Origin: a virus
Reading direction: 5' to 3' (one strand)
Virus record (IMG/VR): IMGVR_UViG_3300036770_003984
Span: 1-64,000 of that record
Length of the DNA: 64,000 bases
Shown in pieces: positions 4,463-57,304 of this stretch (its first letter is position 1; each line of letters starts with the position of its first letter). Made by a program: the position numbers and the translations under genes. Under the pieces are notes generated by a model that was not told where the DNA came from, did no database searches, and saw only the letters and a list, made by a program, of their open reading frames with translations.

Positions 4463-4627
4463 TATAGAAGAAAGTTTTTTGTTTTGACTCAAGTCATATT
4501 TTTTTTGGGTTAAGGTCATCTCCAAAATTGATTTTCATCATCGGAAACCGAAGTGTTATAAACTATATATTGTGGTATGAAAAATAATCAAACACAAAAT
4601 ATTTTAAAATTTAAAAAACACTTTATT

Positions 4628-6028
4628 ATGAAAACTTCAATCTTAGTTCAAATCATTTTCTTCTTGTCTTTACAGTTCTCTGTATTTGCACAAATTACTT
4701 CACAATCACTAAACATTAACCCTACTAGAAATTGTCCAACACAAATCGATGGTGACATTATGGGTCAATCACAATTATGTGAGCTTAGTGAATCAACTCC
4801 TATCAAATATGAAGTAAACCCATCTAATAACATAGTTTCATATGTTTGGACAGTACCTCAAGGTATGGCAATATTCAGAGGACAGAATACTAACCAAATT
4901 TTTGTTGATACAGATTACTCATTTATAAATGGTTATGTTACAGTAAAAGGTATCAACACTTGTGGACAATATACTCAAACAGATTCATTCTATGTAGATT
5001 TGTTACCATCAACACCCATATTTCAAACATCTACTGATATGGTTAGAGCTGACCAAATTTACACATATTCTGTAAACCAATTGAATGGAGTTACTTATAC
5101 TTGGACAGCACCTTATGGTTCAGTAATTATGAGTGGTCAAGGTACTGAAACTGTATCAGTTAAGTTTAGCCAAAGTTTCAATGGTGGATTTGTGGAAGTA
5201 TATGGTGAAAATGGTTGTGGTGTTAGTCAACTCAATCAAATTAATGTAACACTTGACAATGGTTCAAACACACAAAGAATTTTATCTCAAACAGATAGAA
5301 ACTACAATAACTCTAAAACTACTTTGGCTGGTGATATTGCATTCCATTCAAACCTAACAAACGCACAATTTAGTGATACTATTAAAAATGGTGATGTTTA
5401 TTACTTTGAAGTTGTTCTTCAAAACTATTCTCAAAACCCAATGGATAGTGTTTATCTAAAATATTTCCTTAGCTCTGACCCAAACAACTATCAATTAGTT
5501 AGAATCAAACGTCTTGAAGCTGGTGAAGAATATACACTACCTGTATTAACAATCCCAACTGATGGATTAAATGGTGACGAAGAATTATCTTTGGAATTAA
5601 ATCCTGACCAAGAAAAACCTGAAACAGATTATACAAATAACTTTTTGAAAGTTCCGTTCTATGTTCAACTTACAACAACAATGGTAACTAAATTTATAAC
5701 AGATAATAGTGTTAATACTTATAATTACCCAAATCCAGTTGTTGACCATACTCAATTCTATGTTAAACTAGGTTCAAACTTTAGCAAAACTGAAAGTGTA
5801 TTAATTAACATCTTTGATTTGAGTGGACAATTTGTTAAAAGAATTACAATTAACAATTCAAATGACCAAGGTGAATTTATCTCTGAAGTTTGGAATGGTG
5901 AAAATGAAAATGGTAATACTTTAGAAAGTGGTGTTTATTTCTACACAATTAACGCAGTTAACAATCAAGGAAATCTTAAAACGTTTGCATCAAATAAACA
6001 CATTAAAATTGTAAAATTGAAGTCTTAA
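4628..6028 (+). CDS. secreted protein with PKD-like/Ig domains and T9SS type A C-terminal sorting domain
   Basis: Likely start is MKTSILVQIIFFLSLQFSVFA|Q (signal peptide plus Gln) rather than 4577. Has PKD-like repeats (TYTWTAPYG...SGQGT...ENGCG), a CARDB-like LELNPDQEKPETDYTNN segment, and a CTD (NYPNPVVD...IFDLSGQFVK...LESGVYFYTI...KIVKLK). Confidence 0.85.
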   Translation: MKTSILVQIIFFLSLQFSVFAQITSQSLNINPTRNCPTQIDGDIMGQSQLCELSESTPIKYEVNPSNNIVSYVWTVPQGMAIFRGQNTNQIFVDTDYSFINGYVTVKGINTCGQYTQTDSFYVDLLPSTPIFQTSTDMVRADQIYTYSVNQLNGVTYTWTAPYGSVIMSGQGTETVSVKFSQSFNGGFVEVYGENGCGVSQLNQINVTLDNGSNTQRILSQTDRNYNNSKTTLAGDIAFHSNLTNAQFSDTIKNGDVYYFEVVLQNYSQNPMDSVYLKYFLSSDPNNYQLVRIKRLEAGEEYTLPVLTIPTDGLNGDEELSLELNPDQEKPETDYTNNFLKVPFYVQLTTTMVTKFITDNSVNTYNYPNPVVDHTQFYVKLGSNFSKTESVLINIFDLSGQFVKRITINNSNDQGEFISEVWNGENENGNTLESGVYFYTINAVNNQGNLKTFASNKHIKIVKLKS

Positions 6029-6048
6029 TAAAAGTTTATTATCAAATT

Positions 6049-6078
6049 AAAATCCTCACATTATTGTGGGGATTTTTT
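6049..6078 (+). terminator. intrinsic terminator
   Basis: aaaatcctcaca-ttat-tgtggggatttt followed by a T-run. Confidence 0.8.
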
Positions 6079-6141
6079 TATTAAAATATATTTCCTTTTG
6101 ATAAAACTGATGTTGGGTATATTTATTATAAAAAGAATAAT

Positions 6142-7047
6142 ATGAACGAACAACTAATAAAAAAAATAATTGCAGAATATAAAAATGGGGTAGGTTCTAC
6201 TACCATTTCTAAAAAACTACGAGTACCTAAAGAAAAAGTTTTAAAAATATTAAAAGAACAAAATCTTACAAGAAAAAGAGATAGATGTTCAAAACTATCT
6301 ATCATACAAGAAAATGAAACTTTTAAAATAGAAAAAAAATGTCCGATGTGTGGTAATATTAGTTTCATCACAACTAAAAATAAAACTACAGCATGTAGAA
6401 ATTATTACAATACTATAAATAAAAAATCAAATTGCAAAAAATGTAGTTTAATTTTACAACAAGGAGAAGGTAATCCTTTCTTTGGGAAAAAACATACAGA
6501 ACAAACAAAAAGTAATATTTCACAAAGTAGAAAAGGAAAGGGTATAGGTTTAGATAACTCTATGTCTAAAATTGAACACAGAAAAAAACTTTCGGAGTCA
6601 TTAAAGAAAAGTTGGAAAAGTGGTAAACTTGAAGAAACAAGAAAAAAAATGTCTGAGGTATTAAAAAAGACGAGAAGACAAGGTAAAATAAAATCAGTTA
6701 TTAAGTCAAAAAAAGAAAATGAGATTTGTAATATAATTAAAAAATTGGGATATGTTGTTATCTCCTCGTTGAGAGTTGATACTAAAATCTGTGATATCTA
6801 TATTCCAAAACTTAATTTAATTATTGAATACTTTGGTGATTATTGGCATTGTAACCCAATTAAATATGATACCGATTATGTTAATGTTAAAAAAAATCTA
6901 ACAGCTAAAGAAATTTGGAAATATGATGAATCCAAACTTGAATTAATAAAAAGTTATGGTTATAATTTAGAGGTAATTTGGGAAAGTGAACTCAAATTAA
7001 ATAACGATAAATTATTAACTATAATTAAAAAATATGATTCAAAATGA
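6142..7047 (+). CDS. free-standing homing endonuclease (HTH, Zn finger, NUMOD3, Vsr/EDxHD-like nuclease)
   Basis: CPMCG and CKKC Cys pairs; NUMOD3 GNPFFGKKHTEQTKSNISQSRKGK; C-terminal CDIYIPKLNLIIEYFGDYWHC nuclease motif. Confidence 0.8.
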   Translation: MNEQLIKKIIAEYKNGVGSTTISKKLRVPKEKVLKILKEQNLTRKRDRCSKLSIIQENETFKIEKKCPMCGNISFITTKNKTTACRNYYNTINKKSNCKKCSLILQQGEGNPFFGKKHTEQTKSNISQSRKGKGIGLDNSMSKIEHRKKLSESLKKSWKSGKLEETRKKMSEVLKKTRRQGKIKSVIKSKKENEICNIIKKLGYVVISSLRVDTKICDIYIPKLNLIIEYFGDYWHCNPIKYDTDYVNVKKNLTAKEIWKYDESKLELIKSYGYNLEVIWESELKLNNDKLLTIIKKYDSK

Positions 7048-8290
7048 TAATCAACCCCGGTTGGATCACAGAGAAAGAATAAGAGTACTTGTTCTGCCCT
7101 CGGATACGACTGGGGTTGGCTGAGGTAAATTCCGAAGTGTAGACCCCCATGTAATGTTACAGAATATGTACCCAACTGATTTTCATGTGGATATAAATTA
7201 TAACCCACCAATGGATGATATTAATTTTTGGAAACAATATCAGATAGTACACGCTCATAGAAGTATTGGTCAAAATTATAATGTTGTGCCTGATTTTATT
7301 AAAAAATTAAAATCGGAAGGAATTGTAGTAATTGTTGATTTGGATGATTATTGGTTGCCTGGTATTGAACACCCAATACACTCATTGATTGTTCAAGACA
7401 AGATACATGAGAAGATTATGGCTAACTTAAAAGTGGCTAGTTACGTTACTACAACAACAAGTATCTTTGCGGATGAGATAAGAAAATTAAATAGAAATGT
7501 TGTTATTTTCCCAAATGCTATAAATCCAGATGAACCACAATTTAAAGAACCAAACGAAAGTTCTGATAGAATCCGTATTGGTTGGTTAGGTGGGTCTTCA
7601 CATCTTCACGATTTAAAATTACTACAAGGATTTGTTCAAAAAAATATAAATCTTAAAGATAAAGTTCAATATGTTCTATGTGGATTTGATACAAGAGGTT
7701 CGGTAACTGAAATCAACCAAACGACTGGAGAAAGAAAACAAAGACCAATTAGACCAAAGGAAACTGTTTGGGCTCGTTATGAGGAAATATTTACATCAAA
7801 CTACCAAATTGTTGACCCAACTTATAAAAACTTTTTAATGGAGTTTAAAGAAGGTGAATATGAAAATATATCATCACAATCATATAGACGTGTTTGGACA
7901 AAACATATTAATACTTATGCCACAAATTATTCCAAGTTTGACATTTCAATGGCACCAATTAAAAACCATATTTTTAATAGGGTTAAATCACAATTGAAAG
8001 TCATTGAGGCAGGATTTTATAAAAAAGCTTTAATTGCTTCTGAAGTAGGTCCTTATACTATTGACTTGAAACATTCGTTAGAATTTGGTAAATTTGTTGA
8101 TGGTAATGCTTTGTTGGTTAAAGAAGAAAGAAATCATAGTGATTGGGCAAAATATATTAAGACTTTAGTTCATAATCCCAATTTAATTACCGACCTTGGG
8201 GAAAGATTGTATGAGAGTGTTAAAGACAAGTATGATTTAAGAAACGTAACCAAGACTAGAGCTGAATGGTACAAAACATTAATAAAATAA
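7034..8290 (+). CDS. GT-B glycosyltransferase interrupted by an in-frame TGA at 7121-7123 (probable recoding site)
   Basis: The frame of ORF 7154-8290 continues upstream to ATG 7034: MIQNDNQPRLDHRERIRVLVLPSDTTGVG*GKFRSVDPHVMLQNM. The downstream part has GT motifs (VDLDDYW, IGWLGGSSH, FNRVKSQLKVIEAG). Confidence 0.7.
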
Positions 8291-8294
8291 AATT

Positions 8295-9005
8295 ATGATT
8301 AAACAACCAATAACCAAGATTCTTTTTATGGACATTGAAACCGTTGGGTGTTGTCCAGATTATGATGTGTGTTCAACATTGAACCCATCTGTTGCCGCCC
8401 AATTTGACAAGTATTTTGATTGGTTTTTAAAAAGATTTCCTGAAGACTCTCATATTCAATACGACAAAAAAAATGATGTCTTTAGAACAAGAACTGGACT
8501 TGTACCTGAGTTTGCTAAAATTATCTGTATAAGTTTTGCATTTGTATTGGATGATGGGTCAGTTAGAAAACAAACATTTTTTGGTGATGACGAACATAAA
8601 CTTTTGTTAGATGTTCAAAAATTATTAATTAAATGTGGAAAACTTGATTTTTGGTTGTGTGGTCATAATCTTAAAAATTTTGATATCCCAATGTTGGCAA
8701 AACGTATGATTATCAATGGTTTAATGCCACCATCAATATTACCTTCTTATGATACCAAACCTTGGGAAATAAAAGCCATTGACACCAAAGAAATTTGGCA
8801 ATATGGTGCTTATACCTCAATAGGTTCTTTGGATTTGTTGTGTTCAAATATTGGAGTCGAAACACCAAAGAATGGTGAAGTAATTGGTCAGAATGTTCAT
8901 AATGAATATTGGGAAAAACAAAACTTAGAAGGAATAAAAGAGTATTGTGAAAAAGATGTAAATGTATTAATAGAAATAATTAAAAAATTAAAGGATTTGA
9001 AATGA
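8295..9005 (+). CDS. PolB-related 3'-5' exonuclease (DEDD)
   Basis: FMDIET (ExoI), GHNLKNFDIP (ExoII), EYCEKDV (ExoIII). Confidence 0.85.
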   Translation: MIKQPITKILFMDIETVGCCPDYDVCSTLNPSVAAQFDKYFDWFLKRFPEDSHIQYDKKNDVFRTRTGLVPEFAKIICISFAFVLDDGSVRKQTFFGDDEHKLLLDVQKLLIKCGKLDFWLCGHNLKNFDIPMLAKRMIINGLMPPSILPSYDTKPWEIKAIDTKEIWQYGAYTSIGSLDLLCSNIGVETPKNGEVIGQNVHNEYWEKQNLEGIKEYCEKDVNVLIEIIKKLKDLK

Positions 9006-56923: not shown

Positions 56924-57304
56924 GGGGAGTAACTGGTATCGATTGACATTGTTGGTTATTAGGGGCATGTCAGACCTAAACTAAGTCTGTTAAACTGGTT
57001 TGAAACGATAGACGGCAACGTTATCAACAAACTTTCTGCAGTAGGTTTAATCCGTGCTGAAGAAGCAGTAGTAGCCTAGTCAATAGGGTATTACTTTCGA
57101 GTCGGGGTGCATTAACTCAGGAACAGGAGCACTATAGGGTTGTCTAATCAATTCTCATCCCTAAAAATGAATTGACCGATTTTGTTGATTTTGGGTGTAT
57201 AAAAATCAAATAGCTCGGAACATTGCGAATAATGTTGTCCTAAGCATGTAGTCCTTAGTAATTGAGATGGGCAAGAATTGGGTTCGATTCCCAAACTCTC
57301 CACC
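56924..57304 (+). ncRNA. ssrA: tmRNA
   Basis: 5' GGGGAGT pairs with 3' ACTCTCC-A-CC, giving the G3:U70 Ala identity pair; T-arm ttggg-ttcgatt-cccaa; gcatgt segments at both ends; tag ORF 57014-57079 GNVINKLSAVGLIRAEEAVVA*. Confidence 0.92.

Follow-up and report, generated by a model that had tools for sequence, protein, structure and literature searches.

How does a phage express a glycosyltransferase (GT) whose reading frame is closed by a stop codon after only 29 codons? The question is raised by the window analysed here, a 64,000-nt stretch of phage DNA in which an original prediction, made from the letters alone, had noticed that an ATG at 7034 is in frame with the called GT ORF at 7154-8290 (378 aa), the frame that joins them passing through the codons GGC TGA GGT. 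We find this arrangement exactly as described, in sequence and in translation. The prediction had further suggested that the ribosome hops from GGC over UGA onto GGU to give GVGKFRS, and the comparative evidence presented below favours such a hop, which we infer from related sequences, over all of the alternatives listed with it. Our reading is that the GT is likely expressed by programmed translational hopping within a mobile endonuclease cassette, in a manner analogous, not homologous, to T4 mobA/gene 60. The source phage is an uncultured jumbo phage, with Bacteroidota as its likely host phylum.

Architecture of the interrupted gene

Across the junction the GT codons read TCG GAT ACG ACT GGG GTT GGC TGA GGT AAA TTC CGA AGT, and translation through the stop gives ...RIRVLVLPSDTTGVGXGKFRSVDPHVMLQNM (features in Table 1). 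Thirteen aligned full-length homologues (404-406 aa) read ..TG(V/C)-GKFRS.. without the two extra codons, in keeping with the GVGKFRS motif that the prediction had expected of homologous phage enzymes. Since uninterrupted homologues read TGV-G-KFRS, the window has six extra bases, and the alignment identifies these as precisely the bases that had been proposed as an untranslated gap. When the pieces on either side of the gap are joined they encode a 416-aa GT-B enzyme. An assembly error, one of the explanations originally entertained, is excluded because the same break recurs in independent assemblies: the junction GGCTGAGGT is identical in 20 distinct sequence contexts from independent metagenomes. 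A megablast search of GenBank phages with the 5 kb surrounding the site returned no match.

Table 1. Features at the GT locus, in window coordinates
Feature	Position	Strand	Description
Terminator-like hairpin	6049..6076	+	closes the upstream T9SS/PKD-domain gene; 12-pair stem, then T run
Free-standing homing endonuclease gene (cleavage putative)	6142..7047	+	301 aa; NUMOD3; PHROG homing/HNH endonuclease families
GT 5' coding piece	7034..7120	+	29 codons; ATG inside the last endonuclease codons; 13-residue extension MIQNDNQPRLDHR, then ERIRVLVLPSDTTGVG
5' stem-loop	7051..7119	+	13-bp basal stem, 7051-7063 with 7107-7119; MFE -35.2 kcal/mol
Weak alternative hairpin	7112..7147	+	GGGGUU 7112-7117 with GACCCC 7142-7147, three more inner pairs; -14.6 kcal/mol, z -2.4
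Take-off codon GGC (Gly29)	7118..7120	+	proposed final codon decoded ahead of the gap
6-nt coding gap	7121..7126	+	stop TGA 7121-7123 and landing codon GGT 7124-7126 (re-paired, proposed undecoded)
GT 3' coding piece	7127..8290	+	KFRSVDPH... to stop, 387 codons; predicted GT-B/GT4-like fold

The gene product is predicted to be a GT-B (GT4-like) glycosyltransferase, on the strength of a two-Rossmann-domain fold in the AF2 model of an intact homologue (P0003). This model, built on an 81-sequence alignment, has a pLDDT of 97.2 (a single-sequence run reached pLDDT 35 only), and its Foldseek matches are GlgM, PglA, MshA, BshA and PimA (E 1e-13 to 1e-9, TM about 0.6). At the sequence level the GT matches PHROG 7162 (E 1e-45); its match to Pfam Glyco_trans_1_4 is below the cut-off for that family, and a search of PDB sequences with the GT profile gave a spurious partial match only. 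The model places strand beta1 at residues 4-9 and a helix at residues 15-31. The gap site would lie immediately past beta1, at the helix alpha1 N-cap, within a motif (G15, R20, P24) that shows almost no variation in the GT family.

Natural variants at a single codon

We compared the GT gene across 107 distinct sequence contexts, 60 of them interrupted and 47 intact, with the intact homologues reading GV(G/S)KFRS. All 60 interrupted contexts are broken at the same GT codon, by gaps of 5, 6, 7, 8, 9, 11, 12, 43, 44 or 45 nt that occupy all three frames and include every length from 5 to 12 nt except 10; the 60 sequences share a phylogeny, and counts drawn from them therefore overstate independence. 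Relatives of the window vary in the length of the gap and not in its site.

Two features of the junction are common to nearly the whole series. First, the gap always ends in a codon with the first two bases of the take-off codon (60/60). Glycine take-off and landing codons are paired as GGC>GGT (21 alleles), GGT>GGT (21), GGT>GGC (8), GGT>GGA (7) and GGC>GGA (1), and the serine alleles have both codons changed jointly, to AGC>AGC and AGC>AGA. [quoted passage not shown] Whether related phages share the stop was a point that the prediction had raised, and these counts answer it. With lengths spanning 5-45 nt in all frames, only take-off followed by landing restores the reading frame at every gap length.

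The claim that one tRNA-Gly(GCC) reads both codons holds in part. In 51 of the 60 variants the two codons are identical or Y/Y wobble partners; the other nine are NNY>NNA pairs that one GCC- or GCU-anticodon tRNA would not read by standard wobble.

An endonuclease cassette and its stem-loop

The prediction made no mention of the gene upstream, a homing endonuclease that forms a mobile unit with the elements around the break. Its DNA-binding motifs and sporadic distribution identify this gene as a free-standing homing endonuclease, with cleavage putative. The protein appears to have a helix-turn-helix at its N-terminus and a PD-(D/E)xK-like nuclease domain (EYFGDYWHCNP) at its C-terminus, together with Cys4 zinc ribbon(s) and a NUMOD3 motif; the motif D..EY.GDYWHCNP is invariant in the endonuclease family. 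Pfam NUMOD3 is matched above its cut-off (E 1e-7) and is seen in 11/11 family members; REase_MTES_1575 matches 10/11 and DUF559 2/11 members, all below curated cut-offs. The endonuclease profile also matches the DNA-binding domain of I-TevI (1i3j, E 1.7e-4).

The association between endonuclease and interruption is strong. An endonuclease gene, whole or as a remnant, lies upstream of 60/60 interrupted alleles against 12/45 intact ones (Fisher p 1.4e-17), a comparison that is biased because sampling was partly via the endonuclease. The start codon, N-terminal extension, hairpin and gap move with the endonuclease as one cassette, and the GT 5' piece, sitting between the endonuclease gene and the gap, moves with it. 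The extension is missing from alleles without the endonuclease; across cassette-bearing alleles it is 10-14 aa long with conserved Pro and basic residues, a candidate nascent-peptide signal, although its Pro codon is also within the stem, so that protein and RNA constraint are inseparable there. The terminator-like hairpin forms the left edge of the intergenic space holding the cassette, an equivalent hairpin lies directly 5' of the GT start in alleles without the endonuclease (L008), and gene order around the interrupted and intact forms is conserved. As the cassette brought the stop, the upstream homing endonuclease explains why the GT gene is broken. A sigma-70 promoter scan was uninformative in this DNA of 29% GC. 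That the endonuclease might reside in a group I intron or an intein was considered and rejected, as the GT 5' piece follows the endonuclease gene instead of preceding it and there was no Rfam match.

At the RNA level, the 3' arm of the 5' stem-loop takes in the first two bases of the take-off codon, and none of 200 shuffled sequences was as stable (z -5.4). An equivalent long-range stem ending at the take-off codon is present in 60/60 interrupted and 4/47 intact alleles, with a median MFE of -29.2 in the former versus -9.5 in the latter (Mann-Whitney U = 0, p 9e-19). Pairing is kept across at least seven stem sequence variants, a co-variation seen by alignment-free folding of each sequence and a best-stem search with shuffles. 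On a MAFFT alignment of the 36 alleles with six-nt gaps, RNAalifold failed to recover the long-range stem, since subfamilies differ in the register of their 5' arms. The weak alternative hairpin encloses the take-off, stop and landing codons and is mutually exclusive with the 5' stem-loop; one subclade (L190, L201, L213, L019, L196 and L026) has a 12-13-bp form of it (-20 to -24 kcal/mol, z -4 to -6). In the 43-45-nt variants (L206, L174 and L175) the gap holds a GC hairpin, then a G-rich and then an AU-rich stretch, followed by the landing codon. An Rfam scan of 5900-8400 found no SECIS, intron or ribozyme, and gave only chance sub-threshold matches at the upstream terminator.

The proposed programmed hopping, its rivals and its precedents

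We propose that translation starts at ATG 7034, within the 3' end of the endonuclease gene, and that 29 codons are decoded. While UGA, which is decoded slowly, occupies the A site, the anticodon of the peptidyl-tRNA-Gly on GGC 7118 would release, the mRNA would slide by six bases and the same tRNA would re-pair with GGU 7124. Decoding would restart at AAA 7127 and give ...TTGVG-KFRS..., as in the uninterrupted homologues, and the hop would leave the tryptic junction peptide ...VLVLPSDTTGVGK. Several hallmarks of hopping can be recognised in the sequences, namely re-pairable codons, a presumably slow A-site codon, a non-coding gap and apparent selection on both flanks. The cassette would then consist of the endonuclease gene, a new GT start with its extension, a stem-loop of roughly 70 nt abutting the take-off codon, and the gap. 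By analogy with T4 mobA/gene 60, the gap may disrupt the endonuclease's own target, which would be the N-terminal motif that the GT conserves best, and so protect the carrier genome. As a point against the hop, unstimulated stop-hops in E. coli are only about 1% efficient. By the same T4 analogy, the 5' stem-loop, re-folding behind the ribosome, may pull the mRNA forward, although a 6-nt slide frees only part of the stem-loop and a pulling role is accordingly uncertain.

The rival that survives best, and which we nevertheless regard as improbable, is that the cassette, spread by homing of the endonuclease, inactivated a dispensable GT, the pieces of which look intact through recent invasion or recombination with intact alleles. 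The GT tree is in keeping with this, as the interrupted state was gained or lost at least 13 times, the cassette turns up here and there among intact relatives that are otherwise nearly the same, and some GT bodies with it are almost identical to others without it (L013 versus L266 and L010; L315 within an intact clade). Every complete interrupted locus has an intact downstream ORF (385-423 codons), but many insertions are recent and this ORF alone is weak evidence. Against inactivation, the endonuclease is a stub or gone in four of these loci, so that the gap and the intact ORF outlast its loss. The 5' piece, moreover, keeps its synonymous excess despite cassette endonucleases that are only 34-59% identical to reference sequences (34-48% to that of L026, about 50% to that of the window). 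Across 53 interrupted alleles, synonymous and non-synonymous codon differences number 8748:3480 in frame versus 867:11566 and 444:11521 in the wrong frames, and the entropy of codon positions 1/2/3 in the 14 codons before take-off is 0.45/0.32/1.39. These patterns indicate that the 5' piece is under protein-level purifying selection, matching that in intact alleles in strength. Decay would keep neither the ATG, a frame open exactly to the stop, the matched codons and the AGC/AGC co-change, nor a co-varying hairpin in 60/60 alleles. The suggestion in the original prediction that the window carries a pseudogene allele is contradicted by the same purifying selection and co-varying hairpin.

Read-through or local recoding of the UGA (as Trp, Cys, Sec or Gly), the first three of which were foreseen at the outset, would yield GVG-x-GKFRS with two extra loop residues, and the peptide VLVLPSDTTGVG(W/C/U)GK in place of the hop product. 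UGA is the leakiest stop in bacteria, the window's own gap is in frame, and the loop might accommodate two added residues. This reading is very unlikely when the relatives are considered, for the site holds TAA in 25 alleles and TAG in 5, and the frame is broken by gaps of 5, 7, 8, 11, 43 and 44 nt. The predicted position of the site, at the helix alpha1 N-cap in a nearly invariant motif, also speaks against it, as does the lack of a SECIS or other Rfam family in the scanned region. TGA is an ordinary stop in this genome, as the prediction had maintained: among ORFs of at least 120 aa in the phage the stops are TAA 91, TGA 21 and TAG 7, and the 128.5-kb record has no suppressor tRNA. Selenocysteine and genome-wide stop reassignment were rejected on the same grounds. 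Reassignment of TGA under code 4 or code 25 was rejected in view of TAA and TAG at the site and the interchange of TGA and TAA as the endonuclease stop (TGA in the window, TAA in L002). Frameshifting by -1 or +2 as an account of the 5-, 8- and 11-nt gaps was rejected as well, as no slippery site is present and a frameshift would forfeit the conserved PSD..GV peptide.

We see a slimmer chance still that the stop is real and the protein split, with a 29-aa peptide (beta1 and the loop) joining a separately initiated C-terminal fragment in trans. Gene-splitting endonuclease insertions that add terminal extensions are known (bioRxiv 10.1101/2022.08.31.505936; compare NrdA and T4 gp39/gp60), and gene callers do start the GT at 7154 (MLQNM) or 7166, which gives the 378- and 374-aa forms often met in public databases. 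On the other hand, the alleles share no restart codon 3' of the gap. Counting in codons, 26 alleles have their first in-frame ATG at +9, 7 at +13 and 18 somewhere between +19 and +82, and nine alleles are without an ATG within 100 codons. A product initiated at 7154 would, judging from the model, be without beta1 and most of helix alpha1. Least credible of all is removal of the gap from the RNA by unknown editing, slippage or mini-splicing, for which the strong stem-loop beside the gap could in principle be a processing signal. Transcriptional slippage would need a homopolymer run, which is absent here; Rfam gave no match to an intron or ribozyme, and no mechanism is known that excises 5-12 nt. 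The matched codons and adjacent stop, signatures of ribosomal re-pairing, would be superfluous for removal from the RNA.

The programmed hop proposed for the GT has a counterpart in T4 gene 60, where a 50-nt bypass is carried by a MobA homing-endonuclease element (Manning & Atkins 2022, bioRxiv 10.1101/2022.08.31.505936; Bonocora et al. 2011 cited there). The two have in common an upstream endonuclease, a cassette-borne N-terminal extension and a phage enzyme gene with a non-coding insert in a highly conserved motif, and the 43-45-nt GT variants are alike in their in-gap GC hairpin. They differ in the endonuclease, which is of the NUMOD3 and PD-(D/E)xK-like type instead of MobA; in the interrupted enzyme, a GT-B glycosyltransferase here and topoisomerase II there; and in the target gene, which for the GT is not in two parts. 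The GT cassette is without sequence similarity to that of gene 60, and 9/60 of its variants violate the same-tRNA wobble rule of the gene 60 cassettes. Most GT gaps, at 5-12 nt, leave no room for a take-off hairpin or an internal Shine-Dalgarno site within the gap; the structure common to all interrupted alleles is a long stem-loop on the 5' side, the 3' arm of which has the take-off codon at its base. Homologous membership of the MobA/gene 60 family was rejected on the different endonuclease domains, the GT-B target and the lack of gap similarity.

Other precedents share single aspects. The synthetic stop-hops in E. coli (1987, reviewed in Atkins et al. 2016, PMC5009743) have a geometry identical to that of the window, with a codon, a stop and a matched codon and one amino acid inserted; they are artificial, whereas the GT arrangement is natural, conserved and equipped with a dedicated stem-loop. 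The byp elements of Magnusiomyces capitatus mitochondria, bypassed inserts of 27-55 nt at 81 sites in many genes (PMC5009743), are likewise mobile inserts neutralised by bypassing, with the match between take-off and landing relaxed to two of three bases; unlike the GT cassette they are mitochondrial, have no endonuclease, use an A-site unused sense codon and are seemingly context-independent. Short hops have also been proposed for the Streptomyces phage Hau3 terminase and, over 29 nt, for plaA of Prevotella loescheii (PMC5009743; PMC10732093), a genus within Bacteroidota, the likely host phylum of the GT phage. In contrast to the 60 natural GT variants, these cases comprise single or few sequences with no endonuclease link, and their status is unresolved.

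The gene 60 cassette has been called 'unique' (bioRxiv 10.1101/2022.08.31.505936), and no natural in-frame stop-hop was known at the time of review (PMC5009743); our literature search found no paper describing a GT stop-hop cassette. We consider it probable that the GT cassettes constitute a second, evolutionarily independent natural family of phage bypassing and the first stop-hop known from nature, in which a 5' stem-loop that re-folds behind the ribosome would be the main driver and the endonuclease would have built the cassette as self-immunity. For more than 35 years phage programmed bypassing rested on T4 gene 60 and its direct homologues. The variant series, whose members differ in gap length, in which of the three stops they use, in a Gly or Ser take-off codon and in stem sequence, is a ready mutational set for defining the minimal needs of a hop. 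If the reading is true, a phage gene that looks 'truncated' downstream of an endonuclease gene can in fact be complete, a warning for annotation. Homing endonucleases would then have turned to bypassing on at least two occasions to shield the site they themselves target, and the coupling of endonuclease and bypass would be a recurrent evolutionary solution, not a T4 oddity.

The interrupted frame, its phage and the enzyme fold

The upstream ATG frame was found to run unbroken, apart from the TGA, into the called glycosyltransferase (GT) ORF, as the original prediction had claimed. It reads ...AGA ATA AGA GTA CTT GTT CTG CCC TCG GAT ACG ACT GGG GTT GGC TGA GGT AAA TTC CGA AGT.... The source IMG/VR record, of which the window is the first half, spans 128.5 kb at 28.9% GC with a CheckV completeness of 43%, so the virus is probably a jumbo phage whose genome is near 300 kb. 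Because long ORFs in the record end in TAA (91), TGA (21) or TAG (7), TGA is an ordinary stop in this phage, as had been proposed; no suppressor tRNA was found among the 24 tRNA genes of the record, whose array lies at 66-82 kb, outside the window. The window also encodes a tmRNA with tag peptide GNVINKLSAVGLIRAEEAVVA, and a secreted protein that has two PKD-like domains and, at its C-terminus, a sorting domain for type IX secretion (Por_Secre_tail/CHU_C), which indicates a host among the Bacteroidota.

Coordinates of features in the window and in the long-gap loci
Feature	Position	Detail
Secreted-protein gene	4577-6028 (+)	
Homing endonuclease gene	6142-7047	Pfam NUMOD3 and PHROG homing/HNH endonuclease family matches
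Start of full GT frame	7034	ATG
5' stem-loop	7051-7119	MFE -35.2 kcal/mol, z -5.4
Take-off codon	7118	GGC
Stop	7121	TGA
Landing codon	7124	GGT
Called GT ORF	7154-8290	378 aa
tmRNA gene	56924-57304 (+)	
Long-gap variant, locus L206	1040-1140	43-45-nt gap, same codon
Long-gap variant, locus L174	2271-2372	43-45-nt gap, same codon
Long-gap variant, locus L175	1167-1269	43-45-nt gap, same codon

Searching the GT protein against 5.8 billion proteins returned thousands of relatives, the best 120 listed sharing 75-86% identity with the window protein (one is identical). Homologues of 404-406 aa read ...(V/I)L(V/I)(L/A)(P/A)SD..TG(V/C)-GKFRS(V/T)DPH... without the two extra codons, so the window carries six extra bases, and the uninterrupted GVGKFRS reading that the original prediction gave for homologues proves correct. 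Many other homologues have called lengths of 378 or 374 aa with starts MLQNM or MYP, the same as the window's called ORF; such 'truncated' calls are thus common. An AF2 model of an intact homologue (P0003; 81-sequence alignment, pLDDT 97.2, pTM 0.94) has strand beta1 at residues 4-9, a loop at 10-14 and helix alpha1 at 15-31, in a GT-B/GT4-like fold with Foldseek matches to GlgM, PglA, MshA, BshA and PimA. G15, R20 and P24 show little or no variation across relatives down to 30% identity. The gap thus falls where alpha1 has its N-cap, within the best-conserved motif of the N-terminal part, the kind of site that homing endonucleases typically target. Translation begun at the called start would give a protein lacking beta1 and most of alpha1. 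More distantly, a 735-kb 'uncultured phage' record (L001; LR756501.1, 540613-541806) holds an uninterrupted homologue at 33% identity, and Phi92-like Escherichia phages have relatives at 27-30%.

Coding of the two pieces and the series of junctions

We gathered loci through the endonuclease protein (IMG/VR, JGI metagenomes) and the GT protein, and classified each by what separates the valine codon of ..GV from the lysine codon of KFRS. This yielded 107 distinct junction contexts, 60 interrupted and 47 intact, the latter with GGN at the gap codon or, in five, TCR (Ser). Every interrupted allele has an ATG within the last endonuclease codons (consensus AAATATGAC) and a 10-14-residue extension absent from endonuclease-less alleles, followed by (K/R)I(R/K)VLVLPSD..GV in a frame open to the stop directly after the take-off codon. 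Over the 14 codons before take-off in 53 interrupted alleles, entropy at codon positions 1/2/3 is 0.45/0.32/1.39, against 0.45/0.31/1.28 in intact alleles, and synonymous to non-synonymous codon differences number 8748:3480, where the two wrong frames give 867:11566 and 444:11521. Both TCN and AGY encode Ser at -6, and all six codons Leu at -10. Lying between endonuclease gene and gap, this 5' piece moves along with the cassette (endonuclease gene, new start, extension, hairpin and gap). Beyond the gap, all complete interrupted loci, L289, L165, L315 and L316 included, keep an unbroken ORF of 385-423 codons. The interrupted alleles share no conserved restart codon after the gap, which counts against a split protein.

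Interrupted junctions (take-off codon, intervening bases, landing codon) by length skipped
Skipped	Junction	Example loci
5 nt	GGT-TA-GGT, GGT-TA-GGC, AGC-TG-AGC	L027, L177, L026
6 nt	GGC TGA GGT (20 contexts including window); GGC TGA GGA; GGT TAA GGA/GGC/GGT; GGT TGA GGT/GGC	window, L194, L017
7 nt	GGC-TGAA-GGT	L240
8 nt	AGC-TGATA-AGA	L228
9 nt	GGT-TAACCA-GGC	L204, L218
11 nt	three versions, seven contexts	L021, L165, L198
12 nt	GGT-TAACAAAAC-GGT, GGT-TAACCAACA-GGT	L020, L022
43-45 nt	in-gap GC hairpin CCCCCAC...GTGGGGG	L206, L174, L175

Take-off is followed by TGA (27), TAA (25), TAG (5) or GCR and then a stop (3). Read-through, selenocysteine and code reassignment are ruled out as a general mechanism because gaps break the frame and all three stops occur. 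In 60/60 contexts the landing codon begins with the same two bases as the take-off codon; in the Ser-residue alleles both are AGC (L026), or AGC and AGA (L228), and in nine of the 60 variants an NNY take-off codon goes with an NNA landing codon. The long-gap variants run GGT GCR TRA, a 10-11-bp GC hairpin and an A/U-rich tail leading up to GGT or GGA, so that one codon separates take-off from the stop. Judged from these sequences, a peptidyl-tRNA that detaches at the take-off codon and pairs anew with the landing codon would be the single mechanism fitting every variant.

A stem-loop upstream of the gap

The 13-bp basal stem of the window's stem-loop, UCAACCCCGGUUG with CGACUGGGGUUGG, takes in the first two take-off bases. 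When a 78-nt stretch up to and including the take-off codon was folded for all 107 contexts, median MFE was -29.2 kcal/mol (median z -4.4) in interrupted and -9.5 kcal/mol (z -0.2) in intact alleles, with zero overlap in energies (Mann-Whitney U = 0, p 9e-19); a long-range stem is present in 60/60 and 4/47, respectively. Pairing is kept through varied sequences: AACCCCGGTT/GACTGGGGTT, GCCCCTGA/TCAGGGGT, AACCCCA/TGGGGTT, ACTCCGG/CCGGAGT, AACGCCC/GGGCGTT, CACCCCAGTC/GACTGGGGTG and GACACCT/GGGTGTC. The 12 intact alleles retaining an endonuclease gene mostly lack the stem, which therefore tracks the gap, not the endonuclease. A second, mutually exclusive hairpin, in which GGGGUUGGCUGA pairs with downstream UCAGUUGACCCC, is strong in one subclade, at -20 to -24 kcal/mol (z -4 to -6), whereas the window's version is weak (-14.6, z -2.4). 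If the gene 60 5' stem-loop is a guide (bioRxiv 10.1101/2022.08.31.505936, 10.1101/2024.12.09.627546), the 5' stem-loop of the GT cassette may re-fold behind the ribosome and favour forward sliding; its role is uncertain, as a 6-nt slide would free the 3' arm only partly.

A mobile endonuclease cassette and the closest known systems

The endonuclease family profile matches the I-TevI DNA-binding domain, and 10/11 members match REase_MTES_1575 (PD-(D/E)xK family), below threshold, around an invariant EYxGDYWHCNP motif. A 301-aa endonuclease gene precedes the GT in every locus fetched for truncated calls (P0087, P0022, P0088), 107 nt from the called start (119 nt for the 374-aa call), and the readable-DNA loci L002-L007 carry the identical GGCTGAGGT junction; intact loci have no such gene (L008, L009, L012) or a shorter relative (L010, L011). 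The upstream homing endonuclease thus explains the break. The gene or a remnant accompanies 60/60 interrupted contexts and 12/45 intact ones with enough upstream sequence (Fisher p 1.4e-17, a value biased by sampling partly via the endonuclease). Cassette endonucleases share 34-48% identity with that of L026 and about 50% with the window's. Only a C-terminal stub (last 36-66 codons) persists in L289, L165 and L315, and none is detectable in L316; all four keep the new start with its extension, the hairpin, the gap and the whole GT ORF.

Twelve uninterrupted alleles with a related endonuclease upstream (e.g. L010, L029, L155, L156, L189, L191, L195, L243, L244, L248, L253) often encode an endonuclease of 254-259 aa from which about 48 internal residues are deleted. 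Ser (TCG or TCA) replaces Gly at the gap codon in L155, L156, L189 and L191, and L029 shows GC-rich recoding (CGG TTT CGG TCG GTC); these may be an alternative, substitution-based escape from self-cleavage. The gap itself, on the T4 MobA precedent, would shield its carrier from its own endonuclease.

On a GT-body tree built with junction-proximal codons removed, the interrupted state shows at least 13 well-supported changes (parsimony 23; shuffled-label mean 28). Interrupted and intact alleles are in some cases almost the same, and gene order on either side is conserved, as would be expected of a homing cassette with short co-conversion tracts; given such scatter among near-identical alleles, the intact downstream ORF alone is weak support for function.

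The closest system is T4 gene 60/MobA. There, too, the endonuclease gene lies upstream, an N-terminal extension has been added, a stop comes directly after the Gly take-off codon, the landing codon matches, the 5' mRNA is structured and the arrangement outlasts decay of the endonuclease; the four loci that lost the endonuclease and kept the putative bypass are in the same state as T4 itself. The GT cassette is not a member of that family, as endonuclease type, host gene and gap sequence differ. Unlike gene 60, most GT gaps leave no room for an in-gap hairpin or internal Shine-Dalgarno site, although the 43-45-nt gaps come far closer to its layout, and the NNY-to-NNA landings also set the cassette apart; we speculate that the phage's own tRNA-Gly(UCC) could matter for these nine. 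The synthetic E. coli stop-hop has the same geometry as the window junction. Of natural in-frame stop hopping, Atkins et al. 2016 wrote that 'no occurences are known' (PMC5009743), and Manning and Atkins described the gene 60 cassette as unique and found solely in topoisomerase genes (bioRxiv 10.1101/2022.08.31.505936). Our full-text literature search found no published description of the GT cassette.

The proposed hop from GGC over TGA to GGT is thus supported at the sequence level, and extended, by 60 interrupted contexts, matched codons, a conserved 5' piece and the stem. The best explanation, and a highly probable one, is programmed translational hopping that takes place inside a mobile homing-endonuclease cassette. 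In more distant GT homologues (P0123, 801 aa; P0126, 800 aa; P0127, P0128, P0132), inteins that carry LAGLIDADG endonuclease domains sit near residues 170 and 306; the GT family is thus a repeated target of different selfish elements.
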